From NCBI GenBank assembly GCA_052055015.1, contig JBQJIT010000085.1: DNA of 32,285 nucleotides; one strand, written 5' to 3'. The notes beneath the pieces were generated by a model. That model was not told where the DNA came from and ran no database searches. It saw nothing but the letters and a program-made list of their open reading frames with translations. The DNA comes from Malassezia furfur. Lineage: Eukaryota. Made by a program: the position numbers and the translations under genes. Position 1 is the stretch's first letter. Every line of letters begins with the position of its first letter. Of the stretch, positions 97-32,271 are shown in pieces.

Positions 97-1085
97 ATGG
101 CGTTTGGGCAGAAAGGACCGGGTCGGCCACGCGGGCGTCCGCCCAAGGATCCCAACGCGCGGGCATATGCTACCGATGACCGCGCATATACGAAGCGTAA
201 ACTCGACGCCGTGGGCGGCAGCGTGCTTGACCCCGTGCTGGCACGGCAGAGCGTCGACGATGTTGAGGCGGCCCTGCAGCAGGTGCGGTCGCAGTACGAA
301 CAGAACATCGATGAGCGCATCGCACAAGCAACACGAGAGCGCGAAGCAATTCAAGAGCAGTTCGACCGGCTCAAGGAGCTGCGTGTCACCCAGAGCGAAA
401 AGACGCTTGTAGAGTGGAAGCGTGCGAGCGAAGCACGGCTACGACGTACGTGAGTTCACTAATTCCAGACATGACAGAGTCGCTCAATGCTTGGAAACAG
501 CGTGCCGAGCACGCTGAGCACCGGTTGCGCGAGCTCGAGCGCGAGGAAGACGCAGGGCCCAGTGCGCCCGCGCCGAATCGGCGCGTGCAGCAACTGGAAG
601 ACGAGGTTGCGCGGCTCACAGAGAAGCTCGCTACCGCTCGGCGCGAGTGCGATGCAGAGACCAAGCGGGCGGCCGAGCTTGAGCAAATGCCCACACGCGC
701 GACGGACGACGAGCGTGCCGTGCGGCGGCTGTACGAGGATCTCACGGGATTCTTTATTAGCGACGTGGAAGTTTACGATTCGACTCACGATTTGCATCGT
801 TTCCGCTTCCTATTTACGAGCGCGGGGTACCATGGTAGGTGCACTGACTGACAAGCAGACCTACAATTCACGCTGGAGGAGTCACAACTCAAAGTGACCC
901 CGCGTGTGGGCACCGCAGCGGACGTGCGCGACGATCTGGTCTATATTCCTCACTTGGATGAGGTGCGCGATGCGGCCCTACTCGATTCGCCAACGATGCC
1001 AAGCCACTTTTTGGAACAGATTCGGTTCGAGCGAAGCGCTGCGCCGAAATTTCTCACGGCGCTGCAGAAAGGGCTGAAGAAGTGA
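97..1085 (+). CDS. CSM1: Monopolin subunit Csm1/Pcs1-like protein, ~313 aa, with an N-terminal AT-hook
   Basis: Exons 97-445, 469-834, 859-1085; introns 446-468 (23 nt) and 835-858 (24 nt, in-frame stop) join three ORF pieces in frame. Coiled coil, then LYEDLTG...DLVYIPHLD...MPSHFLEQIRF...KFL, typical of the Csm1 globular domain. GRPRGRPPK is an AT-hook. Confidence 0.7.
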
Positions 1086-1141
1086 TGTAGTTCGCTAGAT
1101 CGGCAGTGCCAGGGCCGCATGACCTCGGAGACCACACTATC

Positions 1142-1299
1142 TCCACGGACATCATTTCGAACGCTACCCATTCAGCAGCCCCAGTCTCGCGCAAATTCGA
1201 CCATTGATTGGTCCAATGTGTTGTCAGCGCTAAACGCGTGTGTTTTTTTCCTTGTTGCGGTGCAGGAGTAATTAAGTCGCGCGCATCCGCGGACCTCCG
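1142..1299 (+). promoter_or_regulatory. PDRE-like Zn2Cys6 binding sites upstream of ABC transporter 1
   Basis: TCCACGGA at 1142-1149 (reverse complement of TCCGTGGA) and TCCGCGGA at 1286-1293 match S. cerevisiae Pdr1/Pdr3 response elements. Function is inferred only. Confidence 0.4.
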
Positions 1300-1484
1300 G
1301 CCCTAGTAGACTAAGCGCTGGTTGGACCAAACGTGGAGACCGTATGCGTGAATCCCACGGATATGGCACTTTTGTTATTACTCAGGTGCTCGGACATTAG
1401 GGTGAAACGGGCTCGGCGCCGAATGGTTAGGCCCGCGCATTGACATATAATAACATAGACCTCACCGTTCGATCGTTGCCCTAG

Positions 1485-4400
1485 ATGTCGCTCGACGCCG
1501 CACATGCGACCCCCGTGGAGGGGGTTGCTTTTCACGCGGGGCAAGGCCGACTGCCCGAGCACGAACTGGCATCGGCCATCCCCTCCGCGGGTTACCTGTA
1601 CTCGGGCAGGACGACGTCTGAGTCGACGACGTCGCGCCCCGAGAGCCAAGAGTCGCGCTTTGTTGATGCGCCCAGCCAGCCTCTGGATGCGGCGAACACT
1701 CAGTCCGGTGGTGCTACTGCGCCGATTGCGCAAGATGCGCCCACTGTGCTTCCTTCGTATGCGACCGTCCCGACCGAGGGCGCCGCGGCGCCGCTGCCAT
1801 CCAGCGATGCGCCGCTGGTCCACGAGCACCAATTGTACCCCGTGGATGCATCGCGCTCGAGCGACTCGGGCAAGACGCGCGTAAATGTCGAATCGCTCGA
1901 CCCAGAAGGCGCGCGTGCGCTTTCAGAGCGCCTGGGCAAGGAGCACCAGGAGAGGCAGAAGCACGAAGGCGAGGCCGGTGATCCCGAAAAGCAGACGTGG
2001 AACGAGGGCACCGCCAACCCGTTCGAAACGGACAAAAAGTTTTCGCTTGAAAAGTTCCTGAACGGCTACCTCAGCGAGCTGCAGGAGCGCGACATTATCG
2101 TGCCCAACATGGGCCTCGCGTTCCGCAATCTGAATGTGACCGGCCACGGAAGCGGTGCCAAATTCAACATGACGATCGGCTCCATGTTCACCGCGCCGTT
2201 CCGCATGCTGGTCGACTTCCGCCGCCTGTTCAAGCGGCATGTACGTCACATCCTGTACGATGTGACGGGCTGTGTGAAGCCTGGTGAGATGCTTCTGGTT
2301 CTGGGCCGTCCGGGAAGTGGTAGCACGACGCTGCTCAAGTCGCTTTGTAGCTACCGCGATGGCTACCGCAGCATCGAGGGTGACATTAGCTACGAGGGCT
2401 TTGACTACAAGGCGATTCAAGGCCCGCTGCGTGGTGAAGTGGTATATGCGCCCGAGGACGATGTGCACTTTGCCACCCTCTCGGTCAAGAACACGCTCGA
2501 CTTTGCTGCCGCCGCGCGTGCGCCGCGCCGTGACTACCGTGTGACTGACGATACGAAGGACCCACGCCGTGCCTACATTAAGCAGGCTGTCGAGGTCATT
2601 GCGACGATTCTCGGACTGCGTCATACCTACAACACGGTGGTGGGTGACTCGGTGGTGCGTGGTGTGTCGGGTGGTGAGCGCAAGCGTGTGAGTATCGGCG
2701 AGGTTTTCGCGGCGCACGCGCGTATCATCATGTTTGACAACTCGTCGCGTGGTCTGGACTCGTCGACGGCGTACGAGTTTGGTCAGGCGCTGCGTGTGAC
2801 GACGGACGTGGGTCGTACGACGACGCTATCGAGTATCTACCAGTCGGGCGAGTCGCTGACGAACCTGTTTGACAAGGTGGTGGTGCTGAACAAGGGCCAC
2901 TGTGTGTACTTCGGCCCTGTGGGCAAGGCAGTGGACTACTTCAAGTCGATCGGCTACCTGCCGCACAACCGTCAGGCGACGGCCGACTTCCTGGTGTCGG
3001 TGACCGACCCGATCGGCCGCCGCCTGAACCCCGACTTCCACCAGAAGATCCCGCTATCGCCCGAGGAGCAGGCGGCTGCATTCCGCAGCTCGGAGCTGGG
3101 TCGTGCGAACCAGGCCGAGGTGAATGCGTACATGGCGGAGATGGAGGCGAAGCACTCGCGCGAGTTCTCCAACGAGTACATCAGCACTGTTCGTGGGAAG
3201 CGTACGCGTCGTGCGCGCAAGCACTCCCGCTACATGCTTTCGTGGCCGCAGCAAATTCGCCTGGCGATCAAGCGTCGTGCGCAGATTGCGTGGGGTGACA
3301 TGAACACCACGATGGTCACTTCGGCTGCGTCGCTCTTCCAGGCGCTGATTATTGGTTCCGTGTATTTCCTGATGGCCAAGAACACTGCGGCGCTGTTCTC
3401 GCGCAGTGGTGTGATCTTCTTTGCTCTGCTGTACAACTCGTTCTCGGCCATGGCCGAGGTGCCCAACGGTTACATGCAGCGCCCGGTCGTCATCCGTCAA
3501 CAGCGCTTTGCTATGCTCCACCCGTCGGCAGACTCGCTCGGTAATGTCTTGCTGGACATTCCCATCCGTTCCATTACCATGACCATCTTTGTGGTGGTGC
3601 TTTACTTCATGACAGGTCTGGCTGTCCGTGCGGACAAATTCTTCATCTTCTACTTCACCACGATGCTTCTGACGTTCACCATGGTTACCTTTTTCAGAGC
3701 AGTGACCGCCTGGACGCGTTCCGTTTCGGTTGCGACGATGGTGGCCGGTTTGACGATCATTGACTCGGCGCTATACGCCGGCTATGCGATCCCTCGCCCC
3801 TCCATGGTGATCTGGTGGCGCTGGCTGTCGTACTGCAACCCCATTGCGTTCGGCTTCGAGGTGATGATGATGAACGAGTACCGTGAAGAGTACCTGCCGT
3901 GTGCCCCTGGCCAAATGTTCCCGCCGGTACCTGGCGCGAACCCGGCGAACCAGGTGTGTCCGGTGGCCGGTGCTCAGCCGGGCGAGACGTTGATCGACAC
4001 GTCGCGGTACGCCTACTACCAGTACGGCTACAAATGGTCGAGTGCGCACCGCAACATTGGTATCGTGATTGGCTTTTGGATCTTCTTCATCATCCTCTAC
4101 ATGGTGGGTTCGGAGTTCCAGACCGATCCTTCAGCGACCGGCGGTGTGATGATCTTCAAGCGCGGCTCGGTCAAGCGCGAGCAGCTCGAGCAAACCGTGG
4201 CCGCGGCGCAGAACCCCGGCGTGTCGGACGGCCTCGAGGAGAAGCAGCAGCAGGAGGTTGAGCAGCAGCAGAACCAGGAGGCTCCGGCCGACCCCGAGGA
4301 ACACGGCCAGGGTATCCTCAAGGTCTCGGACGAAGTTTTCAGCTGGGAGCATGTCAATTACGACGTGATGATCAAGGGCGAGTCGCGTCGCCTGCTGAAC

Positions 4401-6365
4401 GACGTATCGGGCTTTGTGGCTCCCGGCAAGATGACTGCGCTGATGGGCGAGAGTGGTGCCGGTAAGACGACACTGCTCAATGTGCTGGCACAGCGCACCG
4501 ACGTCGGTGTGGTCCAAGGCGATTTCATGGTCGACGGCCGTCCTCTGCCGCGCTCGTTCCAGGCGGATACGGGCTACTGTCAGCAGCAGGATGTGCACTT
4601 GGCGCAGACGACGGTGCGTGAGGCGCTGCAATTCTCTGCGCTGCTCCGTCAGTCGCGCGAGACGCCCAAGGAGGAGCGTCTGGCGTACGTGGAGAAGGTG
4701 ATTGAGCTGCTTGAGATGGAGTCGTTTGCCGAGGCGATTGTCGGCGAGGTTCCGGAAGGTCTGAACGTCGAGCAGCGGAAGCGCCTGACGATTGGTGTGG
4801 AGCTGGCGGCGAAGCCGAGTCTGCTGCTCTTCCTGGACGAGCCGACGTCGGGTCTGGATGCGCAGGCGGCGTGGTCGATTGTGCGATTCCTGAAGAAGCT
4901 GGCGAGCGAGGGCCAGGCGATTCTGTGTACGATCCACCAGCCGAGTGGTGAGCTTTTCAACCAGTTTGACCGGCTGCTGCTGCTGCAAAAGGGCGGTAAG
5001 ACGGCTTACTTTGGCGAGCTGGGCAAGAACTCGATGACGCTGATCAACTACTTTGAGGAGCGGAGCGGCATCAAGTGTGGTGACAATGCGAATCCCGCCG
5101 AGTACATCCTGGATGTGATCGGTGCTGGTGCGACGGCAACGACGGACAAGGATTGGTTCCAGCTGTACCGCTCCTCGCCGCTTTACGAGGACATGCAGCA
5201 GGAGCTGAAGAAGATTGCTGCCCGCCGCGAACATGCGAACGAGATTTCCGGCGAGGCGCAGGAGCGCATGAACCGTGAGTATGCACAGCCGTTTGCGGTG
5301 CAGTTCAAGCGTGTGCTGCAACGCATGTTCCTGGCGTACTACCGTGACCCGACGTACATCGCGTCGAAACTGTTCCTTAACCTGTTTGGTGGTCTGTTTA
5401 TCGGCTCGAGTTTCTGGGGTCAAGGCAAGAAGGATTCGTCCAACGCCCTCCAGAACAAACTTTTCGCCATCTTTATGTCGCTCGTGCTGTCGACTTCGCT
5501 GTCGCAGCAGCTGCAGCCCGTGTTCATCAACTACCGCACGCTGTTCGAAGCGCGTGAGAAGCCCTCGAAGCTGTACAGCTGGCCGGTCTTGCTCATCTCG
5601 CTGATCATCGTCGAGATCCCATGGAACTTCCTGGGCGGCACGCTCTTCTGGGTTCCGTGGTACTTCATGGTTCAATTCGGCGCAGAAGGCAATCGCTCAG
5701 GGTACAGTTGGGGTCTCTATATGCTCTTCCAGTTGTACTTCGCGACGTTTGCGCAGGCCATTGCTGCTATCTCGCCCAACTCGCTGATCGCCTCGATTCT
5801 CTTCTCGACCTTCTTCTCGTTCGTCATTGTGTTCTGCGGTGTGGTGCAGCCGCCCACACAGCTGCCCTACTTCTGGCGCAAGTGGATGTACCCCCTGTCT
5901 CCCTTCACGTACATTGTCGAAGGGCAGATGGGCAATGCCATTCACGACAAGCCGGTGCGCTGCACGGAGCGCGAAATGAACACGGTGATCCCGCCCGAGG
6001 GTCAGACCTGCGATTCGTACCTCCAGCCGTTCTCCTACCCGCTCAACGTCACGCCGCCGTCGGACCACGAGAGCGTCGGCTACTATGTCACGAACCCTGA
6101 CAACACGTGCGGGTTCTGCTCGATGCGCCGCGGCGAGGACTACCTGACGAGCATTGAGATGCACTCGCGCTACCGTTTCCGTGACCTGGGTATCCTGTGT
6201 GCCTACATTGGCTTCAACCTGATGCTCGCGTTCGCTCTATACTACCTGTTCCGCGAGCATCGCTGGAAGAAGGCGGCCGTGAAGCCGGCCACCAAGAAGG
6301 GCAAGAAGGGGAAGAAGACCAAGGGTGATGCACAGGAGGCGCAGGGTGCAGTGGAGAATGTGTAA
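1485..6365 (+). CDS. Full-size PDR-type (ABCG) multidrug efflux ABC transporter, Snq2/Pdr-like, 1626 aa, intronless
   Basis: NBD1-TMD1-NBD2-TMD2 order. NBD1: GRPGSGSTT, VSGGERKRVSIGE, FDNSSRGLD. NBD2: GESGAGKTT, LNVEQRKRLTIGVEL, LLFLDEPTSGLD, CTIHQPS, NPAEYIL. Confidence 0.97.
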   Translation: MSLDAAHATPVEGVAFHAGQGRLPEHELASAIPSAGYLYSGRTTSESTTSRPESQESRFVDAPSQPLDAANTQSGGATAPIAQDAPTVLPSYATVPTEGAAAPLPSSDAPLVHEHQLYPVDASRSSDSGKTRVNVESLDPEGARALSERLGKEHQERQKHEGEAGDPEKQTWNEGTANPFETDKKFSLEKFLNGYLSELQERDIIVPNMGLAFRNLNVTGHGSGAKFNMTIGSMFTAPFRMLVDFRRLFKRHVRHILYDVTGCVKPGEMLLVLGRPGSGSTTLLKSLCSYRDGYRSIEGDISYEGFDYKAIQGPLRGEVVYAPEDDVHFATLSVKNTLDFAAAARAPRRDYRVTDDTKDPRRAYIKQAVEVIATILGLRHTYNTVVGDSVVRGVSGGERKRVSIGEVFAAHARIIMFDNSSRGLDSSTAYEFGQALRVTTDVGRTTTLSSIYQSGESLTNLFDKVVVLNKGHCVYFGPVGKAVDYFKSIGYLPHNRQATADFLVSVTDPIGRRLNPDFHQKIPLSPEEQAAAFRSSELGRANQAEVNAYMAEMEAKHSREFSNEYISTVRGKRTRRARKHSRYMLSWPQQIRLAIKRRAQIAWGDMNTTMVTSAASLFQALIIGSVYFLMAKNTAALFSRSGVIFFALLYNSFSAMAEVPNGYMQRPVVIRQQRFAMLHPSADSLGNVLLDIPIRSITMTIFVVVLYFMTGLAVRADKFFIFYFTTMLLTFTMVTFFRAVTAWTRSVSVATMVAGLTIIDSALYAGYAIPRPSMVIWWRWLSYCNPIAFGFEVMMMNEYREEYLPCAPGQMFPPVPGANPANQVCPVAGAQPGETLIDTSRYAYYQYGYKWSSAHRNIGIVIGFWIFFIILYMVGSEFQTDPSATGGVMIFKRGSVKREQLEQTVAAAQNPGVSDGLEEKQQQEVEQQQNQEAPADPEEHGQGILKVSDEVFSWEHVNYDVMIKGESRRLLNDVSGFVAPGKMTALMGESGAGKTTLLNVLAQRTDVGVVQGDFMVDGRPLPRSFQADTGYCQQQDVHLAQTTVREALQFSALLRQSRETPKEERLAYVEKVIELLEMESFAEAIVGEVPEGLNVEQRKRLTIGVELAAKPSLLLFLDEPTSGLDAQAAWSIVRFLKKLASEGQAILCTIHQPSGELFNQFDRLLLLQKGGKTAYFGELGKNSMTLINYFEERSGIKCGDNANPAEYILDVIGAGATATTDKDWFQLYRSSPLYEDMQQELKKIAARREHANEISGEAQERMNREYAQPFAVQFKRVLQRMFLAYYRDPTYIASKLFLNLFGGLFIGSSFWGQGKKDSSNALQNKLFAIFMSLVLSTSLSQQLQPVFINYRTLFEAREKPSKLYSWPVLLISLIIVEIPWNFLGGTLFWVPWYFMVQFGAEGNRSGYSWGLYMLFQLYFATFAQAIAAISPNSLIASILFSTFFSFVIVFCGVVQPPTQLPYFWRKWMYPLSPFTYIVEGQMGNAIHDKPVRCTEREMNTVIPPEGQTCDSYLQPFSYPLNVTPPSDHESVGYYVTNPDNTCGFCSMRRGEDYLTSIEMHSRYRFRDLGILCAYIGFNLMLAFALYYLFREHRWKKAAVKPATKKGKKGKKTKGDAQEAQGAVENV
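4767..5004 (+). repeat. 238-bp tract identical to 10542-10779 (NBD2 of the paralogous ABC gene)
   Basis: Base-by-base comparison gtcgagcagcgg...ggtaagacgg found no mismatch; constant offset 5775. Confidence 0.9.
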
Positions 6366-6837
6366 AGTGTGTACTATGTGTTGCCTGCATATGCAGCCCA
6401 TTTCATAATTTCAGCATTAGCAAAGTTGAACAAGAGATTTACTCTGAAGCACACTTGGTGCATTCTTGTCGGGACTACATTGGTAATGTAGCTTCTTGTA
6501 TACTAGCCCGGGCCTGACCTTGACCGGTCAAAGAATCTCGGCTTGGAGAGAGGTGCCCAAAGGCCTACCCTAAAGCGACTACGGCCCGTTGGTGAGCACA
6601 GCCATGTGTTTTCACATGCTAGCGCCTTAGGCGCGAAGCGCGACCAGGGTCTACATCGCACCTAATTAGCGAGGTTCTCACCGGCGGAGATGCAAGGGGA
6701 AGAACGTGGCACTTATTTGCCCACTGTATGTGGGCGTACGCGCCAATTTGCGGTTGGCCTTGGCATAGGCGCCCAATCTCGACACAGGTACCACCCAGCG
6801 CGCGGTGCAACCGCCGCGCCCTAGGGCCGGCCGAGCG

Positions 6838-6852
6838 ACCGCGGAGGTCCGC
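6838..6852 (+). promoter_or_regulatory. PDRE-like element upstream of ABC transporter 2
   Basis: ACCGCGGAGGTCCGC; shares CCGCGGA-NN-TCCG with 1287-1299 upstream of ABC gene 1. Confidence 0.35.
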
Positions 6853-7112
6853 CTGCCAAGTTTGCCCGATTCCTCGGTTTCACGTTTCCAACGTACGCCG
6901 TGCACGGCAAAATCATCGAACGATCGGGCCAGGCAGCCAATCGCCGTTTTTCGTTGCACGTAGAAGTAAGCGTGCATCCAACATCTACGGGGGAGCGTCA
7001 GCCCACCTATCCAGGCCGGCCGAGAATAACACCTGCGTGGGCGTGCGCTTGGATTTTTTGTGCCTCCAGCGCTCGTACGACGCTGTCCCGACGCTTGGAT
7101 CGCTCGGACGTC

Positions 7113-12761: not shown

Positions 12762-12791
12762 ATGTATAGAAGGTTCATCCTGGGTATCATA

Positions 12792-13446
12792 CTACAAGAG
12801 AAGCACCGCGAGCAGCAAGAGAAACAGCAGCTGGAGGCGTCAGCATGTACACACGTACCGCGATTAGAATCCACACGCACCACCCGTTGAGGCGCGCGTC
12901 GGCGTGCACCAGGAAACGGTCCATGCGCTTGACCGCCGCCTGGAGCTGTGTTTGCGCGCGGTCGACATCGGTGTCGAGGTCGTGCAGCATCACGGCATGC
13001 TCATCCGCCTCAGTGCCGATCAGCTCCGCCTGCGACCGCAGCGTGGTGAGCGACGAGCCGATCTGGTTCAGCGCGCGGTCCTGGTTCGCGAGGAGCAGTT
13101 GCTGCTGCTCCTGCTCCCACGCCAGCGACGTCGTGGGCCGCACGTCCAAAGCGCCCGCGCCGGTGTGCAGTGCATGCTCGAGGCGGCTCAGCTCGCGCTC
13201 GCTCGTCTGTACAAATGCCTTGCGCCGCTCCAGCTCGGCGGGCGACACGCCGAAACGTGACGCGCCGCCTTGCTCCACGACGTGCACCGTTTGCCGGAGC
13301 TCGGCGAGGTCCTGGCGCAGCGACGTGAGTGTCTCACTGAGCTCTGCGCGCGTGCTTCCGTCGCGCTGGAAGGCGTCGCGCAGCGTGCGTGCTGCGTGAA
13401 AGGAGCTCTGGATGTCCTGCGCGAGGCCTTCGTAGGAATCGCGCAT
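12792..13446 (-). CDS. TLG1: Qc-SNARE, syntaxin-6/Tlg1-like, ~208 aa
   Basis: ATG 13446 (MRDSYEGLAQDIQSS). Syntaxin-6 N-domain-like segment (RFGVSPAELERRKAFV) and SNARE motif (QDRALNQIGSSLTTLRSQAELIGTEADEHAVMLHDLD). Removing intron 12831-12858 (28 nt) restores the C-terminal TM helix WILIALLFLLLLAVLLL*. Confidence 0.8.
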
Positions 13447-13455
13447 CGTGGGCGC

Positions 13456-13467
13456 AGCCACGTGGCT
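13456..13467. promoter_or_regulatory. Perfect 12-bp palindrome AGCCACGTGGCT in the 33-bp divergent SNARE/UGGT spacer
   Basis: Seen directly; has a CACGTG (E-box/G-box) core and GCCACGT on both strands. Confidence 0.5.
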
Positions 13468-13479
13468 CCTCTCGCGACC

Positions 13480-16400: not shown

Positions 16401-18109
16401 GGCGCTCATCGTCGACCCGCTGAGCGACCAGGCGCCTGGGCTTGCGGCGACGACGCGCATGCTCGCGGGCCTCGACGGCGTGCGCGTGACGGTGATCCTG
16501 AATCCACGCGTGCACGAGACGCGGCTGCCGCTGCAGCAGTTTACGCAGTACGACGCGCGTCTCCGCCCGCTGTTTGGCGACACAGGGAGCGAGCAGCCGC
16601 CGGGCGTAGCGTTTGCGCTGCTTCCGCCGCAGGCGGTGCTCACGATGCAGCTGCTTGCGCCGCGCACGCTTGTCGCGATGGCGGCCGAGGCCGTGTACGA
16701 CCTGGACAACATCCGCCTCGCCGACCTGGCGCCGGCGGCGCGCGGCACCGGCGTTGAGGCCGTGTACGCGGTGCAGAGCGTGCTCGTCGAGGGCCATGCA
16801 CGCACCAACGACGGTGGCGTCCCGAGCGGTCTGCAGCTCCTGCTCATGACCGACGACGAGCGCGAGGTGCTCGACACGATCGTCATGGAGAACATGGGCT
16901 ACTTCCAGTTCCGTGCGCAGCCCGGCGCGTGGCGCCTGGCCATCCGCCCGGGGCGCAGCGCCGACGTGTATGCCCTCGAGCGTGCCGGCACTGCGGGGAG
17001 GTCGAATGCGCCGGCGGCGTCGACGGATGGCGCACTGGTCGTCGCCTCGCTGCTGGGCAAGCCGCTGTATCCCGTGGTGGCCAAGCGCCCGGGGATGGAG
17101 TCGGCCGACTTGATTGCCGAGATGGATGCCCCCACGCCGTCCGACGTCGCGACGTCGCGCCGCGGCGGGCACGCCGACATCAACGTGTTCACGTTGGCGA
17201 GCGGCCACCTGTACGAGCGCATGACGTACATCATGATCCTCTCGGTGCTTGAGCACACGCAACACTCGGTCAAGTTCTGGTTCGTGGAGAATTTCCTCTC
17301 GCCATCGTTCAAGGCATTCATCCCGCACCTCGCGGCCGCGTACGGCTTCCGCTACGAGATGATCACCTTTGCCTGGCCCCAGTGGCTGCGTGCCCAGACT
17401 GAGAAGCAGCGCACCATCTGGGCGTACAAAATTCTGTTCCTGGACGTGCTCTTCCCGCTCGACCTGGACCGCGTCATCTTTGTGGATGCGGACCAGATTG
17501 TACGTGCGGATCTGTACGAGCTCGTGACGATGGATTTGCACGGCGGTACGTGTGCACGACTTACCCAGCGCCGTACGGCTACCCCCCGATGGGCGACGAC
17601 AGCGAGGACATGGATGGCTTCCGTTTCTGGAAACACGGCTACTGGCGCAGCTTCCTGCGCGGCCGGACGTACCACATTTCCGCGCTGTACGTCGTCGACC
17701 TGCACCGCTTCCGTGCGGTGGCCGCTGGCGACCTCTTGCGGCGGCACTACCAGCGGCTCACGGCCGACAAAAACTCGCTGGCCAACCTTGACCAGGACCT
17801 GCCGAACCACCGTATGTCGCGCATGCTCACCCAGTGCAACACCTCTTGCCCATCTACACGCTCGACAAGACATGGCTGTGGTGCGAGACGTGGTGCTCGC
17901 ACGACTGGCTGCCCCAGGCCAAGACGATCGACCTGTGCAGCAACCCCAAAACCAAGGAGCCCAAGCTCGACCGCGCGCGCCGCCAGATCCCCGAGTGGAA
18001 CGTGCTGGATGCGCAGGTCGCGGCGCTCGCCGCCCGCGTCGCCCAGGGCGATGCACCGGCCTCGGACGCGGCCGAGGCTTCCGCGGACACGGTGCACGAC
18101 GAGCTCTAG
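13480..18109 (+). CDS. KRE5: UDP-glucose:glycoprotein glucosyltransferase (UGGT/Kre5), ~1527 aa
   Basis: Signal-peptide-like N-terminus. GT24 motifs [63 protein letters not shown] and a C-terminal HDEL. Introns 17546-17568 and 17812-17834 (23 nt each) join the catalytic domain in frame. Confidence 0.95.
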
Positions 18110-18140
18110 GCTATAAAGGCTATCGCTGCTCCGTAGGGTA

Positions 18141-20012: not shown

Positions 20013-20180
20013 GTACGGGCTCTCGGTGCGCCAGATGGAGTCGCGCGGACGTGTCAAGATGTCCACGGACTTTTTACCCTGGTGCGTGCGCCCGTACGCT
20101 GCGTCAGCACGTGGGAGGGTCGATCCCCGCGGTGCCCGCGGCCACACACCGCCCGCTGACTCAGCGCTTGTGCACAGACG

Positions 20181-21373
20181 ATGTTTCGACGGCTCGCGGA
20201 CGCGCTCGGAGCACCGGGGGGAGCGTGTGGCGCAGTACGCTACTTGTCGTCGGGACCGGCACGTCCGTCCGTCGCTACGCTCCCGCGGCGCACCGTGTTG
20301 TCACTCGAGGGCCGAGACACATTCAAGTTCCTTCAGGGCGCCATCACCAACAACGTCCAGCGCCTCGAAGACGAGCGGCGCACTGGCGGGATCGTGCGCG
20401 ACGTGTTCTATGCCGCATTCCTTAACCCACAGGGGCGCATGGTTGCCGATGCGCTCCTGTACCACAGGACGCAGGCCAGCGAGCCCTCGGTGCTGATCGA
20501 AGTCGATGCGCAGGTCGAAGGCGAGCTAGTCAAGTTCCTCAAGCGCTTCAAGCTCCGGTCCAAGTTTCGTATCACGGACGTCTCGGATGCTTGGGATGTT
20601 CGACAGGTGTGGGGACCGGGTGCCGAGCAGCTCATTGACAGCGCACCTACCGATGACCCCCACGTCGTGGCCGTCCGCGACGTGCGGGCGCCATCGATGG
20701 GCTGGCGTTTGCTGAGTCCAGCCGGCGAGACACGTACGTTGTTGACCTGACACAGCCTCGTTCCTGGCATCAGCGGACCAGGTGTCTCCGGAAGAGTACA
20801 CCGTACACCGCATGCTCTCGGGTGTGCCCGAGGGCGCCGACGAGCTGACCAGCGGCACCAGTCTGCCGCTCGAATGCTGTGTCGATTACATGAACGGAGG
20901 TACGTCGCGGCACTAAGTCCAGTCGATTTCCACAAGGGCTGCTATATCGGCCAGGAGCTCACAGCACGCACGCACTTTACCGGACTTATTCGCAAGCGGG
21001 TCATGCCCGTGATGTTGACGCGCCCTGACGCACCGTACGTTTCGCCTTGCCCTGACACAGTGCGCCACAACCGCCGCATGCCGATCCTGCTCACATCCAC
21101 GCGCTCCCTGCACATGGCGCGGATGTGCGGCTGACGTCTGCCCAGCAAGCCGACAACGGCGGCAAGCCGCGTCGCGCACGGTCTGCCGGCAAATTTTTGG
21201 GCGGTGTCCAGAATGTGGGTCTTGCTCTGCTCCGTCTCGAGCAGGTGACACAGACACAAAATGGGCCTTCCTCGCCCCAGCTGCTGATCGAGTGTGCTGA
21301 CGGCACATCCGCCCAGCTGCATGCATGGCGGCCGGCGTGGTGGCCTGCAAACACCGACGACCGTGGCGAATGA
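20181..21373 (+). CDS. IBA57: Mitochondrial Fe-S assembly factor Iba57/Caf17 (YgfZ/GcvT-like), ~373 aa
   Basis: Arg-rich presequence-like N-terminus; [26 protein letters not shown] and the signature [12 protein letters not shown]. Introns 20734-20755 (22 nt), 20900-20922 (23 nt) and 21035-21060 (26 nt) give one continuous frame. Confidence 0.92.
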
Positions 21374-21474
21374 GCGTGCACCATATACCAAGCATTGGCG
21401 TCCCATAGCGCGACCTCCACACGTGGCCATTTTTTCCCAAGCGTCCGCGCCCTGTCCAGGCTTGCCAAGGTGTC

Positions 21475-23469: not shown

Positions 23470-23481
23470 TGTGTATATAAA

Positions 23482-25809
23482 TCAATGTTGACGTGCCCGA
23501 TCGACCAGACGCCCGTCTGCTAGCGCAAGTACAACGGCGAGATTGTCGGGTGTTGTCTGCGCGTCCTTCTGGATTGCCTTGGTGTCGACCTCGGCGTTTT
23601 TGCTGTCCAGCTTGTCCGTGTATTTTTGCGAAGCCGTATCGTGCACGGAATGATGCTCGTGTCCCGCCACAAACAGGGCCTCACGAATGCCGGCAAAGCT
23701 GTTGTCGATGACCACCGGCGTCGTGCCGTTCGTCTTGGACCCGTCGGGCGCATGGCACAAGTTGTAGAAACGTTGCACGGCCGTGTTTGTCTCGGTGGAT
23801 AGGTGCTGGGATGCGCTCATCGAGTCGGTGCTTGTGTCTGCCGACGGAGCATCGGTAATACCGCTCATTCGCTCGCGAAGCTGTTTCCAGCGGTAGATGT
23901 AAGAGGCACCGAGGAGATACTTGCGCACGATGGTCGACATCAACTCGCCGGCCTCGAAATTGACAACAAAGTCGCCATTCATCAGCGCGGTGTACCCATC
24001 GTTTCCACCCGCAAGGTAGCCACGTGTGACGACGTTGTACTTTTTGTCCAGCTGCAGAGGCTCTTTGACGCCCGCCGGCACTCGATGGACGGTCACCACA
24101 TCGTCGTCGGCCCCATCGGAGGGCACGTACTCAAACTCGCCACGAATTTTCATGCACATCTTCTCGCTCGAGGAAAACTTGCCATCGAACGGCAGGCGCA
24201 AAAAGTCGACGCTCACGACGCGGTGGAAAGGCTCCTTTGACGCGTCCCAGACGACGCGCATGCCGGCGATCTGGGGGAAGCGCCCTTCTTGCTTGGGATA
24301 CTGGCTGAACCCATTCTCAAGCGCATCCCACAACTGCTGGCCCGTGAGCTCCTTGACGACGATCGGGTCCTCGAATGGCATGATCTCGAGGATGTTGCCC
24401 AGCGTGATTTCGCCGGGCCCAAACACGGCGTCGCCACGCAGCGAACCACCGCAAATCAAGCAGCAGTCAGCCACACGTTCGCCAGCGCCAATCAACCTGT
24501 TGCTCATTTTTTGCACGCGCAGCATCGTTTCGGTCGAGATGAGCAAAATGTCGGCAAGGAAGTCACCAAGCGGCGACTCCTCCATGCGTACATGACTTGC
24601 GCGGGCATCCCATGGCGTCAGTGTATAAGCCACAGGCTGCCCCACCGATTTGGTCACACGCTCCATGAGATTGTCGAGCATCTTTTTGAGCTCGGGCTGC
24701 GTCGGATCGTCGGGGTGGATCGTGTGCCGTTTGACTGCGTTAGTACAGGCACCTACCTCGGATGCCGGTGATGGTGCGACGCCGCACGGCGTTTTGCGGA
24801 GCAGAAAGGGTAAGTTCGAGCTCGCTCAGGTCGTGGAAGTCGGTGCCACTCTTGATCATGTAGGTACTTTTGTCATTTTCGTTTCCCGGCATGTCCACGC
24901 AGAATTCCTCGCCCTCGTACGTATCCACGCCGCGGCTCACGTAGTATACATGATCGTGGCCACCCAGCACCAAATCGACACCGTGCTGGTTCGCGTCTGT
25001 ATGTTTCACTGCGCCGAGCTCGTTGGCGATCAGGACGTCGTTGGGAACGCGACAATGAGTTGCGGCAATGATCAGTTCACACTGCTCCTCGCCCTCGCGC
25101 AGCTCTTTGGAGAGCTTGCGGGCCACATCGACCATAGAGCGGTACTCAAAGTGCTCTGGGAAGCCCGGTACCGTTTCCAGCCATTCCCTGTGTCAGTGCA
25201 GTCGCGACGTACTCTTCAACCAAGCCAATGATGCCCACTTTGACACCTTTCACCGTCATGGTAATGTACGGCAAGGTGCCTGCGACCTGCTTGTCACGCG
25301 CGTCGATTTGGTCCGTGCGTGGTTCGCCTGCAGGGCGCCACGATGCATCCACCACATTCGCAAAGAGCCACGGAAAGTTATTCTGACTCATAAGCGTGTA
25401 GAGATGCGGGTACCCGAAGTCCCAGTCATGGCTGTGTGAGGTCCCGGCACCTACTTTCCCAGACACGCGGCGTCGACCTGCATGGCGTTAATCACGGGCA
25501 CCATATGCGCACCGCGCGTGATGCTGCTTTCGACGCTCGGGTTAAACAGGTCTCCAGAAAAGATACAGAGCCCATTCCGATCGCGCTTCTGGTGCTCGGC
25601 CCACTCAAATGGGGAGCTGGGTACAGAACGCTGGCACTCTTGCCCCTCTTCCTGCCATGTTTGGCGGATTTCGTTGATTTTCGCGGCGAATTGGTCGGCA
25701 CCCAGCAAGCTGTCGGACCCACGCACTTTTTGCCTCACACGATATACACTGCTGTCAGAGTAGTAGCCTACTCGTTGAAGTGCAGCACGGGGATCTGCAC
25801 GCTCGTCAT
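23482..25809 (-). CDS. 5'-nucleotidase (calcineurin-like metallophosphoesterase plus 5'-nucleotidase C domain), ~744 aa, no signal peptide
   Basis: After splicing introns 25749-25771, 25432-25454, 25188-25212 and 24735-24756 the motifs LHFNDVY, FSGDLFNPS, LGNHDWDFG, LGGHDH, GGSLRGD, GRFPQIAG and YLAGGNDGY appear in one frame. Confidence 0.92.
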
Positions 25810-25832
25810 GGTGTACGGCAGGTCTGTGCACG

Positions 25833-25841
25833 GTCACGTGA
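25833..25841. promoter_or_regulatory. GTCACGTGA E-box (Cbf1/bHLH-type) in the 82-bp divergent spacer
   Basis: Seen directly; the same GTCACGTG core occurs at 47-54 on the minus strand. Confidence 0.4.
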
Positions 25842-25891
25842 GATTGCCCGTGTCCGCGCACCGCGTCCGCGTTTCGCCCCGCACCCACCAC

Positions 25892-26768
25892 ATGCTCTTG
25901 AATCGCGTGTTTGTAGCGAGCGCGTTGCGCTCCGTGTTTGCGCGCCCCTCCCCCGCGGTGGCACTGCGCGCGCCATTGACTACGTCTGTTCCCCTGCAGC
26001 TAGCCAAGTCCGCTGAGAAGCCTAAGGCGAAGCCCAAGCGCGCGACCAAGCCGGCGACCAAGTCGGCGAGCAAGCCGCAGGCCAAGGCCGACAAGCCCAA
26101 GAAGAAGGCGAAGCCGGCGAAGAAGGACAAGCCGTGGGAAGCGCGCGATGCGAATGGCAAACTACGTATGTTTTCGATCTGACCCAGTGCCCCTACCGAT
26201 GGAGTCGAAGCCGACGCGCCGCTCGTCGTTCTTGATCTACTTCACCGAGCGGCTCCCCCAGCTGAAGAACAAGGAAGAATTCCGCAAGGTGAGCCCCTCG
26301 ACCGGAAAGAGCGTCGTGGATGTCACGGCGGTGACCTCGGCGGTCGGCAAGGAATGGAAGACGCTCCCAGACGCGGAGCGTCAGCGTATCGACAAGCTGG
26401 CCGCCCATGCCAAGCAGCAGTACGAAAAGGACCTCAAGGCGTGGCAGGAAAAGCTGACGCCCGAAGACATTCGCCGTCAGAACCTGTACTATGCACACCA
26501 GCGCAAGCTGGGCAAGCACATGCCGAGCAACCTCAAGGACCCCTCGGCGCCCAAGCGCCCACAGGGCGCCTTCCTCTTCTTTGTGCAGCACCTGCGCGAG
26601 ACAGAGCCGAGCGGCGAGCCGGTGCACGTCATTGCGAAGCGGGCAGGTGAGCGCTGGAAGACGATGGACGCGCACGAGAAGCACCCCTTCGAGACCAAGG
26701 CCCAGGGTGAGCACGAGCTGTACCAGCAAGCACTGGAAAAGTATAAGAAAGCTACGACCCATGCCTAA
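25892..26768 (+). CDS. Tandem HMG-box protein with a mitochondrial presequence (Abf2/TFAM-like nucleoid protein), ~284 aa
   Basis: MLLNRVFVASALRSVFAR presequence, Lys/Ala/Pro linker, intron 26166-26187 (22 nt), two HMG boxes (KPTRRSSFLIYF...GKEWKTL; DPSAPKRPQGAFLFF...GERWKTM). Confidence 0.82.
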
Positions 26769-26794
26769 TAGTTTATAAGCAGAGCACCTGGAGC

Positions 26795-28450: not shown

Positions 28451-28560
28451 GTTGGAAGAACGGGAAACGTTGTGCCCGTCTGTGCGCACGGGACGCCGCC
28501 ACTCTAGGGCGCATGGAAACTTTCTGATAAATGTTTAATCAGCATATACATCGCGCCTCC

Positions 28561-29709
28561 ATGGCTGAACGCAGAAGCAAGTGGGATCGGCCTGCCGAGG
28601 GCGCTAAGTCGGGCGCGCTCACGATCAATTCGGAGGATGTGAAGCCGGCTGCCCGTGCGGCCGCAGCGGCTGCTTCCAAGATTGCCGCACAGTTTGGGCG
28701 GCCGGACCCGGCGACGGGCACGCTCGTGAAACACAGCGAGCTCGACGAAGATGCGCCGGACGGCGCCTACGTGCACGACATTGACATCAACGACCACCGG
28801 AATCGGTACCTGTTGACCAAGCGCCAGACACAGCTGGATCTGTATCGCGAGTTTGGCACGCGCGTATTCACCAAGGGCACCTGGTACCCGGACCGGACCA
28901 AGGTTCGGCCTCACGACCCGCCGCTTTACCTGCACATCTCGGCGGACACCAAAGAGGCGCTGGACCGCACGATTGCACGTATCTACGAGCTTATGTCGCG
29001 CGATCTCCCGCCGCTGCTTGATGACCGCCTGCACCGGCGCGACGACCGCTTTATGAACTGGCCGGAAGAAAAGGTCCCGGTGGTGATGGAATCGCTACGC
29101 AACTTCAATGTGCGCTCCAAGCTCGTGGGACCCGGCGGTATGTTTGTCAAATACATCCAGAGCGAGACGCGGGTCCGTACGCAAATCCGCGGGCAGGGCT
29201 CGGGCTACTACGAGGCCGAGACCGGCCGCGAGCTCGAAGAGCCGCTCCACATCCATCTCTCGTACGTACACTGCCTGCGCGCCCAACTAACCCCAGGAGC
29301 CCGGAAGAGGCACAGCTGCGCAAGGCCCGCGAGCTTGCACTCGATCTGGTGGACGCGGTCAAGACCGAATGGAAGAAGGCGTACGAGGCCCTTGGATTGG
29401 GCCCTGCACCCGACCCAAGCCAGGTGGCGGCACCGCCGCCGCCGCCGCCGGAGAACGAAGTGCCACCACCGCCCGAGGACGAAGTGCCACGTAAGTATTT
29501 CAACTCACCCAGCGCCGCCCCCGACCGACGAGCCGGCGCAGCCCGAGCCGCCCAAGGAGGAGGCGAACGGCGTGTCCGAGGAAGAGGCCGCACTCCGGCA
29601 ATACTGGAAGGACTATGTTGCGTGGGAGAAGAGCTTCGTGGATTACCATGGCCGCAAGCCGACCAAGGAAGAGGGGGGGCAGGATGTGCCTCCCGAGCAT
29701 CAACAATGA
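28561..29709 (+). CDS. KH-domain RNA-binding protein, KHDC4/Blom7-like, ~363 aa
   Basis: RRSKWD, DIDINDHRNRYLLTK, PLYLHISA, FNVRSKLVGPGG, IRGQGSGY, EPLHIHLS. Introns 29262-29296 (35 nt) and 29491-29512 (22 nt) restore the final KH helix (LRKARELALDLVDAV) and a Pro-rich tail. Confidence 0.8.
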   Translation: MAERRSKWDRPAEGAKSGALTINSEDVKPAARAAAAAASKIAAQFGRPDPATGTLVKHSELDEDAPDGAYVHDIDINDHRNRYLLTKRQTQLDLYREFGTRVFTKGTWYPDRTKVRPHDPPLYLHISADTKEALDRTIARIYELMSRDLPPLLDDRLHRRDDRFMNWPEEKVPVVMESLRNFNVRSKLVGPGGMFVKYIQSETRVRTQIRGQGSGYYEAETGRELEEPLHIHLSYVHCLRAQLTPGARKRHSCARPASLHSIWWTRSRPNGRRRTRPLDWALHPTQARWRHRRRRRRRTKCHHRPRTKCHVSISTHPAPPPTDEPAQPEPPKEEANGVSEEEAALRQYWKDYVAWEKSFVDYHGRKPTKEEGGQDVPPEHQQ

Positions 29710-29738
29710 TGCTGTATACCGTGCTGCACGTAGATCAT

Positions 29739-31022
29739 CTAAAAGCCCCGTTGGTATGTACTTTGCACGATCGGGCGATGACGTCGAGTCCTTTGTGGTC
29801 GAGACTGGGTATCATCCGGTGGTTGGTCGGCCCGTGCGCGTTTGGATGGACGCGACGCCGACGGTGACGGTGGTCGTTTTGGATCAGCGGGTGCATCAAT
29901 CGATGCTTCCTCGCCCGGCGGCTCTGTATCGCTGGACGACGATGACCGCGTAGGGGATGCCTGCATTGACACCAATTCACTGGATGCAGTCGATGGCGTG
30001 GCCATGTCGAGCTCCCCGTCTGATTCCATATCGGACTCGCTGTCCCACGCCAACGCCTCATCGAGGAGAGCATCGGAGTCGGTCGGAATATCCCAAGCAA
30101 AGCGCTGGCCCCATTTCCAGTCATGCCAGCCACTTGGCATCCTCGTCTCGTCAGGGACGACACAAGCCTTACGCCAAATGCCCTCGGGCGTCGTGCCAGG
30201 CAGCGCTTCGCTCACCTCTGCACGTGCTTTGTCGACCAGAGCACGGCGAGCAACAATGTCCGGCATCGGTTTCATAGACCATGTACGCCGCTCCAAATGC
30301 GGCACCACAGGTCGCGCTGCATACAACGAACACATGCGTTCGTATACCTTGTCTGCTGCGAGCTTGGCTCGTGCGTTGTTGGACGTATAGGCAGCGGCAA
30401 GCACGTCACGCCATTCGAGTGAACGTGCCGAAGTCCGGCGGTGCACCACCTCCGGCATACCACGCAGTGTATCGTACAGCGTGCCTGGCGGCAGGGCCGT
30501 CGAAGAGGTGAGGAGCTTAGTCGCTTCTTTCGCGACGGCTTCGGGGGTATAGGAGGTCCCTGGGAACAGCTTGAGGTGGGAGAGAAGCTGGCACAGGGCG
30601 TGGTGCACGGCCATCCAGTGCACACCTGCTGTTTCGCGCGTGAGCGGTCCGCACTGTTCGGCAATTGCCGCGACTTCGTCAGCCAACAAGAAATTTGGTG
30701 CCGGCACCTGGTCGGCATGCATCGGCCAGTGTAGTGGGCCTTTGTGCATCGTGAGAAAACGCGCTTGCTCGAGAACATCTTCACGGCCTGCAGCATCCGG
30801 CACCTGCTCGTCCACCATCGCATGCGTTAGGTGTCGCTGACTCGCCGCAGCCGAGCCCAGCTCGTAGCCGATGTCAACGCCGCATCCGAAATCGAGCGCG
30901 GTAAAGACCGACTGGATGTCTTCAAATTCTTGCTGTGGCAGCGCATTGCTTTTTCCATGCCGCCGAGCCGCTGCGCGCTGAGCCAGACGCTTGGGCGCTG
31001 GACGTGCCGGCTCAGTACGCAT
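29739..31022 (-). CDS. Hypothetical nuclear protein, possibly Rrn9-like (RNA Pol I upstream activation factor), ~427 aa
   Basis: First ATG at 31022. HWPMHADQVP, LEWRDVLAAA and VYERMCSLY recall the WP....VP / W.dVL..A / R...L motifs of fungal Rrn9-domain proteins (from memory). Acidic and basic low-complexity C-terminus. Confidence 0.5.
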   Translation of the reverse strand: MRTEPARPAPKRLAQRAAARRHGKSNALPQQEFEDIQSVFTALDFGCGVDIGYELGSAAASQRHLTHAMVDEQVPDAAGREDVLEQARFLTMHKGPLHWPMHADQVPAPNFLLADEVAAIAEQCGPLTRETAGVHWMAVHHALCQLLSHLKLFPGTSYTPEAVAKEATKLLTSSTALPPGTLYDTLRGMPEVVHRRTSARSLEWRDVLAAAYTSNNARAKLAADKVYERMCSLYAARPVVPHLERRTWSMKPMPDIVARRALVDKARAEVSEALPGTTPEGIWRKACVVPDETRMPSGWHDWKWGQRFAWDIPTDSDALLDEALAWDSESDMESDGELDMATPSTASSELVSMQASPTRSSSSSDTEPPGEEASIDAPADPKRPPSPSASRPSKRARADQPPDDTQSRPQRTRRHRPIVQSTYQRGF

Positions 31023-31149
31023 GCCAAGCCTTAAAGGACGCGCGGACGAACGTTGCGGCGCAATTTTATTTTGGGATTTGCGATTGCCCAATCATTCGGC
31101 GCACGCATTGACGGGCACACGCCAAGACGCTTCTTCCACTCTAGCAGCC

Positions 31150-31798
31150 ATGAACCAACTCCTGATGCTTTTCCAGCGCCACAAGCGCCAGATCATGCGC
31201 TACGGCCGTATGGTATGTCGGCATGAAACTCACGCAGCTTCTTCAGCGCCTTAGCGGCCGTCGCACCAGCGCCGGTATGGGTGCCGGCATGGGCGCCGGT
31301 ATGGGCGGCGGCATGGGCTCCGGTATGGGCGGAGGCATGGGCTCCAGCGGCATGATGGGCGGAAGCAGCATGATGGGCTCTGGCGGCATGGGCTCTGGTG
31401 GTATGGGCGCCAGCGGCATGGGCTCTGGCGGCGGCGGTCTCAGCAACATGGTTAACAGTGTCCTGGGCGGCAGCAGCCACCACAACAGCGGCATGGGCGG
31501 CGGTATGGGCTCTGGCATGGGCGGCGGCCACCATGGCGGTATGGGTGGTATGAGCAGCGGCGGCATGGGTGGCATGGGCGGTGGCCATCATGGCGGCATG
31601 GGCGGCGGCAACATGGGCGGTAGTGGAATGAGTATGATGGGCGGCGGCGGCCACCACGGTGGCCACCATGGCGGCGGCATGGGCGGCATGGGCGGCGGCT
31701 ATGGCGGCGGCTATGGCGGCGGAGGTATGAGTGGTGGCATGGGTGGCGGTGGCTACAACAGTGGCTACGGCGGCGGCGGTGGCTACAACAACTACTAA
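31150..31798 (+). CDS. Orphan Gly/Met-rich low-complexity protein, ~207 aa
   Basis: Exon 31150-31212 (MNQLLMLFQRHKRQIMRYGRM), intron 31213-31237 (25 nt, GTATGT...CTCAC.GCAG), exon 31238-31798. Third codon positions vary among the repeats, as expected for coding sequence. Confidence 0.75.
31271..31795 (+). repeat. Degenerate coding tandem repeats (GGC/ATG-rich; GMG[AGS], GGHH and GGY units)
   Basis: Repeated ggcatgggc / ggtatgggc / ggcggctat units. Confidence 0.85.
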
Positions 31799-31869
31799 TT
31801 GCCCACCACCGTATCGACTTCCGTGACTCGCTAATCCCGCATCAATGTACATCATAACTGCGAATACAA

Positions 31870-32271
31870 CTACATGTCCATGTCCATGGCGTACGCTTCG
31901 TGCGACGCGGTCACGCGCGGCGCGGGGGGCTTTGTATCATGTTCCTTGCGAATCTCTTCCTCTAATAGCAACATTTGATCGATGTCAGGCTCACCGAGTG
32001 CCTTGGCCCCCTCTTGTTCGTACATTTCCCGGGTCCGCTCGTATTCCTCGCGAAGAATTTGCCCGATGATGTCTTCACTCAACGCCGGCGTCTGATGAAC
32101 TTCAGCGTGCACGGCGTCGGCCCACCAAGTGGATGGTGGCGCACGAGCGTTGGCCACCGCCTGGGCCCTACGCTGACCGCGCTCCAGCTCCAGTTGCGCA
32201 CGGCACCGCTCCCGCAGGCGTGCGCGGACTGCCGCCGTGTCCGTACCGCCCTTGTGCACGCGCCGCGACAT
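31870..32271 (-). CDS. Small hypothetical protein, 133 aa; weak resemblance to the RPA-interacting protein N-terminal region
   Basis: ATG-initiated ORF filling the gap; helical basic N-terminus (RARLRERCRAQL) and acidic helices (ILREEYER, LLLEEEIRKE). The family call is weak. Confidence 0.55.
   Translation of the reverse strand: MSRRVHKGGTDTAAVRARLRERCRAQLELERGQRRAQAVANARAPPSTWWADAVHAEVHQTPALSEDIIGQILREEYERTREMYEQEGAKALGEPDIDQMLLLEEEIRKEHDTKPPAPRVTASHEAYAMDMDM

Follow-up and report, generated by a model that had tools for sequence, protein, structure and literature searches.

A gene-dense stretch of Malassezia furfur DNA, 32,285 nucleotides (nt) long and referred to here in its entirety as the window, carries several genes that are interrupted by introns of 22-35 nt. 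Checks of the predicted proteins and splice signals confirm that these introns, 16 in number, are real and mostly ordinary for a genus known for very short introns; with good confidence, they can be assigned to the ordinary U2-type (GT-AG) spliceosomal introns of M. furfur. The modest new elements concern the way in which the introns appear to be built. They show a minimal architecture, in which a 6-nt donor is succeeded by 7 or more nt of spacer, a predicted 5-nt branch box, mostly 1-2 nt and a terminal CAG, for a minimum of 22 nt. In addition, the distances from donor to predicted branch point and from branch point to 3' end show a one-sided pile-up, which is likewise a modest new point.

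The introns had been proposed in a sequence-only reading of the window, and they were rechecked with a motif scan of both strands and a per-intron table. All 16 were recovered where that reading had placed them (Table 1), with lengths that agree throughout: 22 nt in four cases, 23 nt in six, 24 nt in one, 25 nt in two, and 26, 28 and 35 nt in one each. The mean is 24.3 nt and the median 23 nt (n = 16); 15 of the introns are 28 nt or shorter and 10 are 22-23 nt, figures that describe the window and not the genome.

The splice signals are also as they had been described. Every donor has the form GTANG(T/C), with GTACGT in eight introns, GTAGGT and GTATGT in three each, and GTAAGT and GTAGGC in one each. 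GTNNGY is the fungal-type donor consensus, and an extended donor consensus of the type that pairs with U1 and U6 is present in all 16. Each intron contains a CTNA(C/T/G) box 5-9 nt from its 3' end and terminates in CAG, and in 14 of them the box is held 5-6 nt from that end. There is no polypyrimidine tract in any of the 16; the tails that follow the predicted branch adenosine are 5-9 nt long and mostly read C(A/C/G)CAG. Introns of the U12 (minor) type have a rigid /(A/G)TATCCTT donor and a TCCTTAAC branch box. No donor or branch box among the 16 introns agrees with this consensus, and a U12-type identity was therefore rejected; removal by a non-spliceosomal route was rejected on the splice signals.

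The length of a single intron (835-858) is a multiple of three, and this intron carries an in-frame TGA (P = 0.014 under an expectation of thirds). The scarcity of such lengths is reminiscent of Paramecium, in which stop-free 3n introns are depleted, but may be due to ascertainment bias in the way the introns were found.

Table 1. Introns of the window. Branch A is the distance from the donor to the predicted branch adenosine of the 3'-most CTNA box; the tail is the number of nt after that adenosine.
Gene and intron	Position	Strand	Length (nt)	Donor	Branch box	Branch A	Tail (nt)	Phase
Csm1/Pcs1-like, intron 1	446..468	+	23	GTACGT	CTAAT	+17	6	1
Csm1/Pcs1-like, intron 2	835..858	+	24	GTAGGT	CTGAC	+17	7	1
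Syntaxin-6/Tlg1-like SNARE, intron	12831..12858	-	28	GTACGT	CTGAC	+19	9	0
UGGT, intron 1	17546..17568	+	23	GTACGT	CTTAC	+18	5	1
UGGT, intron 2	17812..17834	+	23	GTATGT	CTCAC	+18	5	1
CAF17/IBA57, intron 1	20734..20755	+	22	GTACGT	CTGAC	+17	5	1
CAF17/IBA57, intron 2	20900..20922	+	23	GTACGT	CTAAG	+17	6	1
CAF17/IBA57, intron 3	21035..21060	+	26	GTACGT	CTGAC	+21	5	2
5'-nucleotidase, intron 4	24735..24756	-	22	GTAGGT	TACTAAC	+17	5	1
5'-nucleotidase, intron 3	25188..25212	-	25	GTACGT	CTGAC	+20	5	2
5'-nucleotidase, intron 2	25432..25454	-	23	GTAGGT	CTCAC	+18	5	2
5'-nucleotidase, intron 1	25749..25771	-	23	GTAGGC	CTGAC	+17	6	2
Two-HMG-box gene, intron	26166..26187	+	22	GTATGT	CTGAC	+17	5	1
KH-domain gene, intron 1	29262..29296	+	35	GTACGT	ACTAAC	+29	6	2
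KH-domain gene, intron 2	29491..29512	+	22	GTAAGT	CTCAC	+17	5	1
Gly/Met-rich gene, intron	31213..31237	+	25	GTATGT	CTCAC	+20	5	0

Protein-level support for exon joining

Chance alone produces motifs of this kind with some frequency. The window holds 22 matches to the loose motif GTNNGY-N4-25-CTNAN-N1-3-YAG, compared with 11.6 +/- 3.7 expected from 200 dinucleotide shuffles, and frame rescue among GT...AG segments of 12-45 nt yields 216 donor-type candidates. Neither the motif count nor frame rescue alone was accepted as evidence for introns, and the case therefore rests on homology checks, in which spliced gene models were compared with Pfam profiles and homologue alignments. The value of an open frame is further reduced in two genes, those for a KH-domain protein and for UDP-glucose:glycoprotein glucosyltransferase (UGGT), whose unspliced frames stay open for hundreds of codons. 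High guanine-plus-cytosine (GC) content keeps wrong frames open here: an unspliced open reading frame (ORF) of 382 amino acids runs through both KH-gene introns (28561-29706) and exists as database protein P0049, and the UGGT frame (13261-18603) is open unspliced to 18603, where it overlaps the convergent neighbouring gene.

The earlier proposal that every intron restores the reading frame of its gene stands at the protein level for 14 of the 16, in which exact exon joining is supported by homology, Pfam continuity or a membrane anchor; for the remaining two (26166-26187 and 31213-31237), the support consists of motif, frame and codon usage. The comparisons show that the predicted introns must be removed if conserved proteins are to be encoded. 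Moreover, codon log-odds favour the predicted frame in every tested exon except CAF17 exon 4.

In the Csm1/Pcs1-like gene (coding sequence 97-1085, plus strand), for which a representative search gave full-length homologues, both junctions align with these proteins. The first is gap-free against three of them (P0168, P0172 and P0174) and faces a gap of 6 amino acids in P0169, and without splicing a stop codon is reached after two codons. The second, GYHD/LQFTLEES (a slash in a peptide marks the splice point), is gap-free against Ustilaginomycotina homologues, and positions 51-83 of the Pfam Csm1 profile correspond to the exon 3' of this intron. Four ORF-type database proteins (P0168, P0170, P0171 and P0173) read through the same intron. 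A search of PDB sequences with two Csm1-like exons returned coiled-coil noise for one and no match for the other.

Evidence of a different kind comes from the syntaxin-6/Tlg1-like SNARE gene (12792-13551, minus strand), where the support is protein architecture rather than aligned homologues. Removal of its intron places a hydrophobic tail anchor at the C terminus, immediately behind the SNARE domain, while the unspliced tail is non-hydrophobic. The UGGT gene (13480-18109, plus strand) is interrupted within the Pfam Glyco_transf_24 domain, and the profile is divided at the exon boundaries. Profile positions 1-122 finish at the last residue of exon 1, positions 124-203 cover the whole of the 80-residue exon 2 from its first residue, and positions 205-267 begin with the first residue of exon 3; the two junctions split the codons of the absent positions, 123 and 204.

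All three junctions of the CAF17/IBA57 gene (20181-21373, plus strand) align, one of them within the conserved KGCYIGQE region. The first lies in a variable region, is gap-free against the M. vespertilionis homologue P0038, and would meet a stop after five codons if unspliced; the second is gap-free in most of the homologues shown, and the third, within RKRVMPVML, is gap-free against homologues. Similarly, the four junctions of the 5'-nucleotidase/metallophosphatase gene (23482-25809, minus strand) have no gap at the splice point when compared with Ustilaginomycotina homologues (11 shown), and two of them cut conserved motifs, such as LGNHDWDFGYPHL. The junction of intron 1, LHFND/VYRVRQK, is gap-free, as are those of intron 2, within the conserved metallophosphatase motif CLGNHDWDFGYPHL, and of intron 3, within GIIGLVEEEWLETVP. 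At intron 4, the junction within AVRRRTI shows no gap against the 11 homologues, with one indel column 9 residues upstream, and the unspliced frame stops after five codons.

The KH-domain (KHDC4/BLOM7-like) gene (28561-29709, plus strand), both of whose junctions align with homologues, is the only gene of the window that was compared with a deposited M. furfur model. Its exon 1 is 100% identical to the deposited protein M. furfur CBS9595_003525 (P0048), and this protein of 362 amino acids can be regenerated exactly from the window DNA, which identifies the organism as M. furfur. Of the 13 sequences shown, 11 align across the first junction without a gap, and one of these, P0048, uses the same intron; the other two, the ORF-type proteins P0049 and P0050, read through it. 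At the second intron, the deposited model removes 29460-29484, a 25-nt GT...AG segment that has no branch box and lies within a short direct repeat, and not the canonical 29491-29512. Splicing of the latter (EVPPPPEDEVP/PPPPTDE) outscores the deposited model in all six Malassezia-type homologues (67-87 versus 48-59 bits), and the alignments suggest that the deposited model is probably mis-annotated at this intron.

Two proteins of M. vespertilionis call for a related comment. P0001 has an insertion of 9 amino acids exactly at the junction of 5'-nucleotidase intron 1, and P0038 has one of the same size exactly at the junction of CAF17/IBA57 intron 2. Judged from the protein alone, the inserted peptides fit a CTNAC box located 6 nt from the 3' end, and the insertions have the appearance of in-frame introns of 27 nt that the annotation failed to remove. 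Very short introns are thus easily mis-annotated, as illustrated by the deposited M. furfur model, the two M. vespertilionis models and the ORF-type read-through proteins.

The two weakest introns lie in the two-HMG-box gene (about 25892-26768, plus strand) and, weakest of the 16, in the low-complexity Gly/Met-rich gene (about 31150-31798, plus strand). Might some of the 16 be chance motifs beside genes that actually start at an internal ATG, most obviously 31213-31237 and perhaps 26166-26187? We consider this very unlikely, even though chance would give about 12 occurrences of the loose motif in the window. For the Gly/Met-rich gene, neither a homologue nor a Pfam family was found, the 64-codon ORF upstream has a non-coding score (-0.01 log-odds per codon), and the protein could begin at an internal Met with no intron at all. 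In the predicted frame, however, the final 21 codons upstream of 31213 reach 0.51 per codon, and the two exons that flank the intron of the two-HMG-box gene are both close to 0.5 (0.48 and 0.51 per codon); retention of that intron would bring a stop after five codons. Moreover, both introns resemble the 14 verified ones in having the strict form GTATGT...CT(C/G)AC...CAG and a tail of 5 nt. The HMG boxes themselves sit in exon 2. When seven stretches were searched against Pfam at E values up to 10, the four short flanks of the HMG-box and Gly/Met-rich junctions matched nothing, nor did the 36-residue end of Csm1-like exon 2, and the exons that did match gave no match across any junction. The Gly/Met-rich exon 2 (31238-31798) is an ORF of 186 amino acids with GMGGG-type repeats and a GGY-rich tail, and the opposite strand is open from 31193 to 31936.

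Distances around the predicted branch point

According to the sequence-only reading, the predicted branch adenosine never lies closer than +17 to the donor and is always followed by at least 5 nt. Both statements hold for the 16 introns. With the 3'-most CTNA box taken as the branch box, the adenosine falls at +17 in eight, +18 in three, +19 in one, +20 in two, +21 in one and +29 in one, and the tail measures 5 nt in 10, 6 nt in four, and 7 and 9 nt in one each. The distribution is sharply one-sided: half of the donor-to-branch values are exactly at the minimum, the eight non-modal values are all above 17 (sign test p = 0.004), and the six non-modal tails are all above 5 (p = 0.016). Intron length follows donor-to-branch distance (r = 0.94) and not tail length (r = 0.39), which indicates that the variation lies in the post-donor spacer and that the branch box keeps a nearly fixed place close to the acceptor.

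How firm is this apparent floor? Several points weigh against the picture of genuine introns compressed to a minimum. With 16 introns and none below the floor, the 95% upper bound on the proportion of shorter ones is still 17%. The branch adenosines were predicted by motif alone, and the second Csm1/Pcs1-like intron contains another CTGAC box that would place the adenosine at +13. The introns were first found by motif and frame repair, a procedure that would miss in-frame stop-free introns or those with atypical branch boxes. Support for the junctions is at the level of protein and sequence, and for two introns (26166-26187 and 31213-31237) it consists of motif, frame and codon usage. Finally, the median of 23 nt in the window differs from the approximately 30 nt published for M. 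sympodialis and M. restricta, so that either M. furfur differs from these species or the window is unrepresentative.

The +17/+5 floor could accordingly be an effect of the small sample and of ascertainment, in which case the genome-wide distribution would be soft and would include some shorter distances or tails. We regard this as unlikely, though less so than the other alternatives considered here. The number of introns, the manner of their first selection and the alternative box at +13 all lend it weight, and annotators of sister species, in the accessible portions of their reports, permitted introns down to 10-15 nt. The one-sidedness described above is what such an effect must contend with, and scans of the window that admitted shorter introns also speak against it. 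When the branch adenosine was allowed from +10 and introns from 15 nt, no credible, homology-compatible intron below +17 was found in the window, and no further one emerged when every GT...AG segment of 12-45 nt was examined for frame rescue; the shorter candidates sit within verified exons or antisense to them.

The candidates rejected in these scans include 24917-24944 (plus strand), which is antisense to a verified 5'-nucleotidase exon, and 13325-13341 (plus strand) and 14530-14543 (minus strand), which are antisense to coding sequence. Two others, 731-760 and 20822-20852, are exonic, and the homologue alignments shown run through both stretches without interruption. Candidate 14731-14760, also inside an exon, has an atypical GTGCGC donor and was judged spurious without an alignment check.

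The earlier suggestion that the introns pile up against a steric limit, a 17-nt lariat plus a 5-nt tail making 22 nt, is therefore accepted in part. The one-sided pile-up agrees with it, but 16 introns do not establish a hard floor, and the proposed values are not general. Considering that Stentor has a lariat of 10-11 nt and Yarrowia a branch-to-AG gap of 2 nt (see below), any limit in Malassezia would be lineage-specific.

The explanation that we favour for such a distribution is as follows. Each intron is approximately the bare sum of its full-strength signals, namely the GTANGY donor (6 nt), the CTNAY branch box (5 nt) and CAG, with nearly all variation in length confined to the stretch that separates donor from branch box, which spans 7 nt or more. 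In a genome under compaction, a bias towards deletions may shrink the introns until they reach the shortest distances that the spliceosome of this lineage can handle, perhaps about 17 nt from 5' splice site to branch and 5 nt from branch to 3' end. Shrinkage to such a lineage-specific minimum would produce the one-sided pile-up at 22-23 nt. From spliceosome structures, one would expect about 6 nt each for the pairing of U6 with the 5' splice site and for the U2/branch helix, joined by a linker of about 5 nt; a turn of 3 nt beyond the branch adenosine would then lead to the AG, which docks on that adenosine. If these dimensions apply here, an intron that keeps full-length donor and branch pairings could shrink in the linker alone, a plausible reason for a limit peculiar to the lineage.

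Gene content and composition of the window

Several features of the window were noted beyond the introns. Its GC content ranges from 57 to 71%, with a block of 67-71% at 12001-20000 that spans the syntaxin, UGGT and VTT-domain genes and 57-62% elsewhere. Two tandem genes for PDR/CDR-type ABC transporters (1485-6362 and 6825-12758) lie on the same strand; no introns were detected in them, and they have near-identical stretches in common, for example 4462-4493 and 10237-10268. The predicted start codons are approximately 60-85 base pairs (bp) apart in two divergent pairs, one formed by the 5'-nucleotidase and HMG-box genes (25809-25892) and the other by a minus-strand ORF (29742-31091) and the Gly/Met-rich gene (about 31091-31150), and the promoters between them must consequently be extremely compact.

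For window genes other than the KH gene, the top named matches are from Malassezia species at approximately 50% identity, followed by Ustilaginomycotina. The window's glucose-6-phosphate isomerase was also compared with metagenomes, in search of related Malassezia DNA; in the 80 loci kept of 592 matched stretches, the best segment was 48-68% identical, and these loci were set aside. Scans of the window for Rfam families and for transfer RNA genes gave no matches.

Relation to known short introns

That Malassezia introns are short, as the first reading had stated, is borne out by published annotations of related species. The curated annotation of M. sympodialis comprises 5350 introns that average 30 bp, of which 99% are supported by RNA sequencing (RNA-seq) (PMC5389616), and that of M. 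restricta 2150 introns with a median of 30 and a mean of 37.2 bp (PMC9241646). In annotating M. restricta, the lower limit on intron length was set to 20 and 15 (PMC6473144), and the available text of a review refers to "very short introns" in Malassezia genes (PMC7426719). Tiny introns backed by RNA-seq are therefore already established in the genus. The introns of these two species resemble those of the window, being very short GT-AG introns in compact genomes of 7-9 megabases, but their mean or median of approximately 30 bp exceeds the window median of 23.

The remaining part of the earlier proposal concerned the spliceosome, and its premise, that the introns are too short for conventional occupancy, poses a real steric puzzle. 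In human extracts, as given in the accessible part of the report, efficient assembly needs approximately 50 nt between 5' splice site and branch, and the geometry of the B complex corresponds to approximately 52 nt (PMC6692369); the 17 nt found here are about one third of the latter.

One possible answer is a remodelled spliceosome or assembly pathway: if U1 and the factors for the branch and 3' site cannot sit on the intron simultaneously, the two ends might be recognized sequentially, or early factors might have been lost or altered. The shortfall relative to the human distances is the main attraction of this idea; the window introns also leave no room for a polypyrimidine tract, and the authors of the Stentor study conjecture altered branching factors that avoid clashes with a tight lariat (PMC9505925). 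Remodelling nevertheless seems improbable to us. Nothing in the window bears on the splicing machinery, and canonical U2 small nuclear RNA, U2AF1/2 and most spliceosomal proteins are reported, in the text available, for myxozoans and Stentor (for Stentor, PMC9505925), whose introns are as short or shorter. Moreover, there is nothing non-canonical in the Malassezia signals, an argument in favour of normal pairing with U1/U6 and U2. In open literature from PMC and bioRxiv, we found no paper on branch-point position, minimum donor-to-branch distance or spliceosome make-up in Malassezia.

A related and more novel idea, to which we give a low though somewhat higher probability, is that Malassezia unites ultra-short introns (22-23 nt) with full-strength signals, and that its spliceosome would pair U6 and U2 normally while operating at one third of the donor-to-branch distance that human B-complex geometry permits, which would imply a distinct pre-catalytic arrangement or sequential occupancy of the two ends. 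If this tentative idea is correct, a culturable and transformable yeast would provide the first practical model for minimal-intron splicing. Discussion of the problem has so far centred on ciliates, nucleomorphs, microsporidia and parasitic animals, all of them difficult to manipulate. Malassezia, in turn, is amenable to culture and transformation, with Agrobacterium transformation and gene deletion described in the literature; combined with 22-nt introns that bear textbook signals, this could make the question testable by deletions in reporters.

The closest parallels in length come from lineages with ultra-short introns. In Stentor, introns of 15-16 nt form a lariat of 10-11 nt and leave a tail of 5 nt after the branch adenosine (PMC9505925). 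Introns of the Bigelowiella natans nucleomorph are 18-21 nt (PMC6009652), those of Paramecium 20-34 nt, and those of myxozoans and dicyemids have a median of 22 bp. The available part of a survey from 2026, devoted to the shortest introns, names only ciliates, Microsporidia and Dicyemida as earlier-known exceptions. Like the window introns, those of ciliates, the nucleomorph, myxozoans and dicyemids have narrow length distributions against a lineage-specific minimum, have no polypyrimidine tract and pose the same steric puzzle. The Stentor tail equals the commonest tail in the window, but its lariat loop is 10-11 nt rather than 17. The signals also differ: these lineages have weak donors and a weak branch motif or none (PMC2483917, PMC6009652), whereas all 16 window introns have a strong donor and a CTNA box. 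In myxozoans, moreover, the accessible text places the putative branch adenosine farther from the AG in longer introns, unlike the window, with its nearly fixed branch box. The window introns thus match the ultra-short class in length and not in degenerate signals.

In the scheme of Irimia and Roy (2008), short-intron lineages, with weak signals, and intron-poor lineages, with strong signals, a fixed branch-to-AG distance and C at -5, form opposite classes (PMC2483917). The window introns combine traits of both. As in intron-poor yeasts, the branch consensus is strong and the distance from branch to AG is both fixed and very short; these yeasts prefer C at -5 with CGCAG-like acceptors, which the mostly C(A/C/G)CAG tails of the window resemble, but the introns of these yeasts are not short overall (PMC2483917). 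The commonest branch-to-AG gap in Yarrowia is 2 nt, so the tail seen in the window is not a universal minimum (PMC2483917). The minimum distance from 5' splice site to branch in humans and budding yeast embodies the same concept, a lower bound set by geometry, with short introns dependent on Smu1/RED according to the accessible part of that report (PMC6692369). The corresponding bound in the window would be about 17 nt, a third of the human estimate, and is derived from statistics of the sequence, not by assays of splicing.

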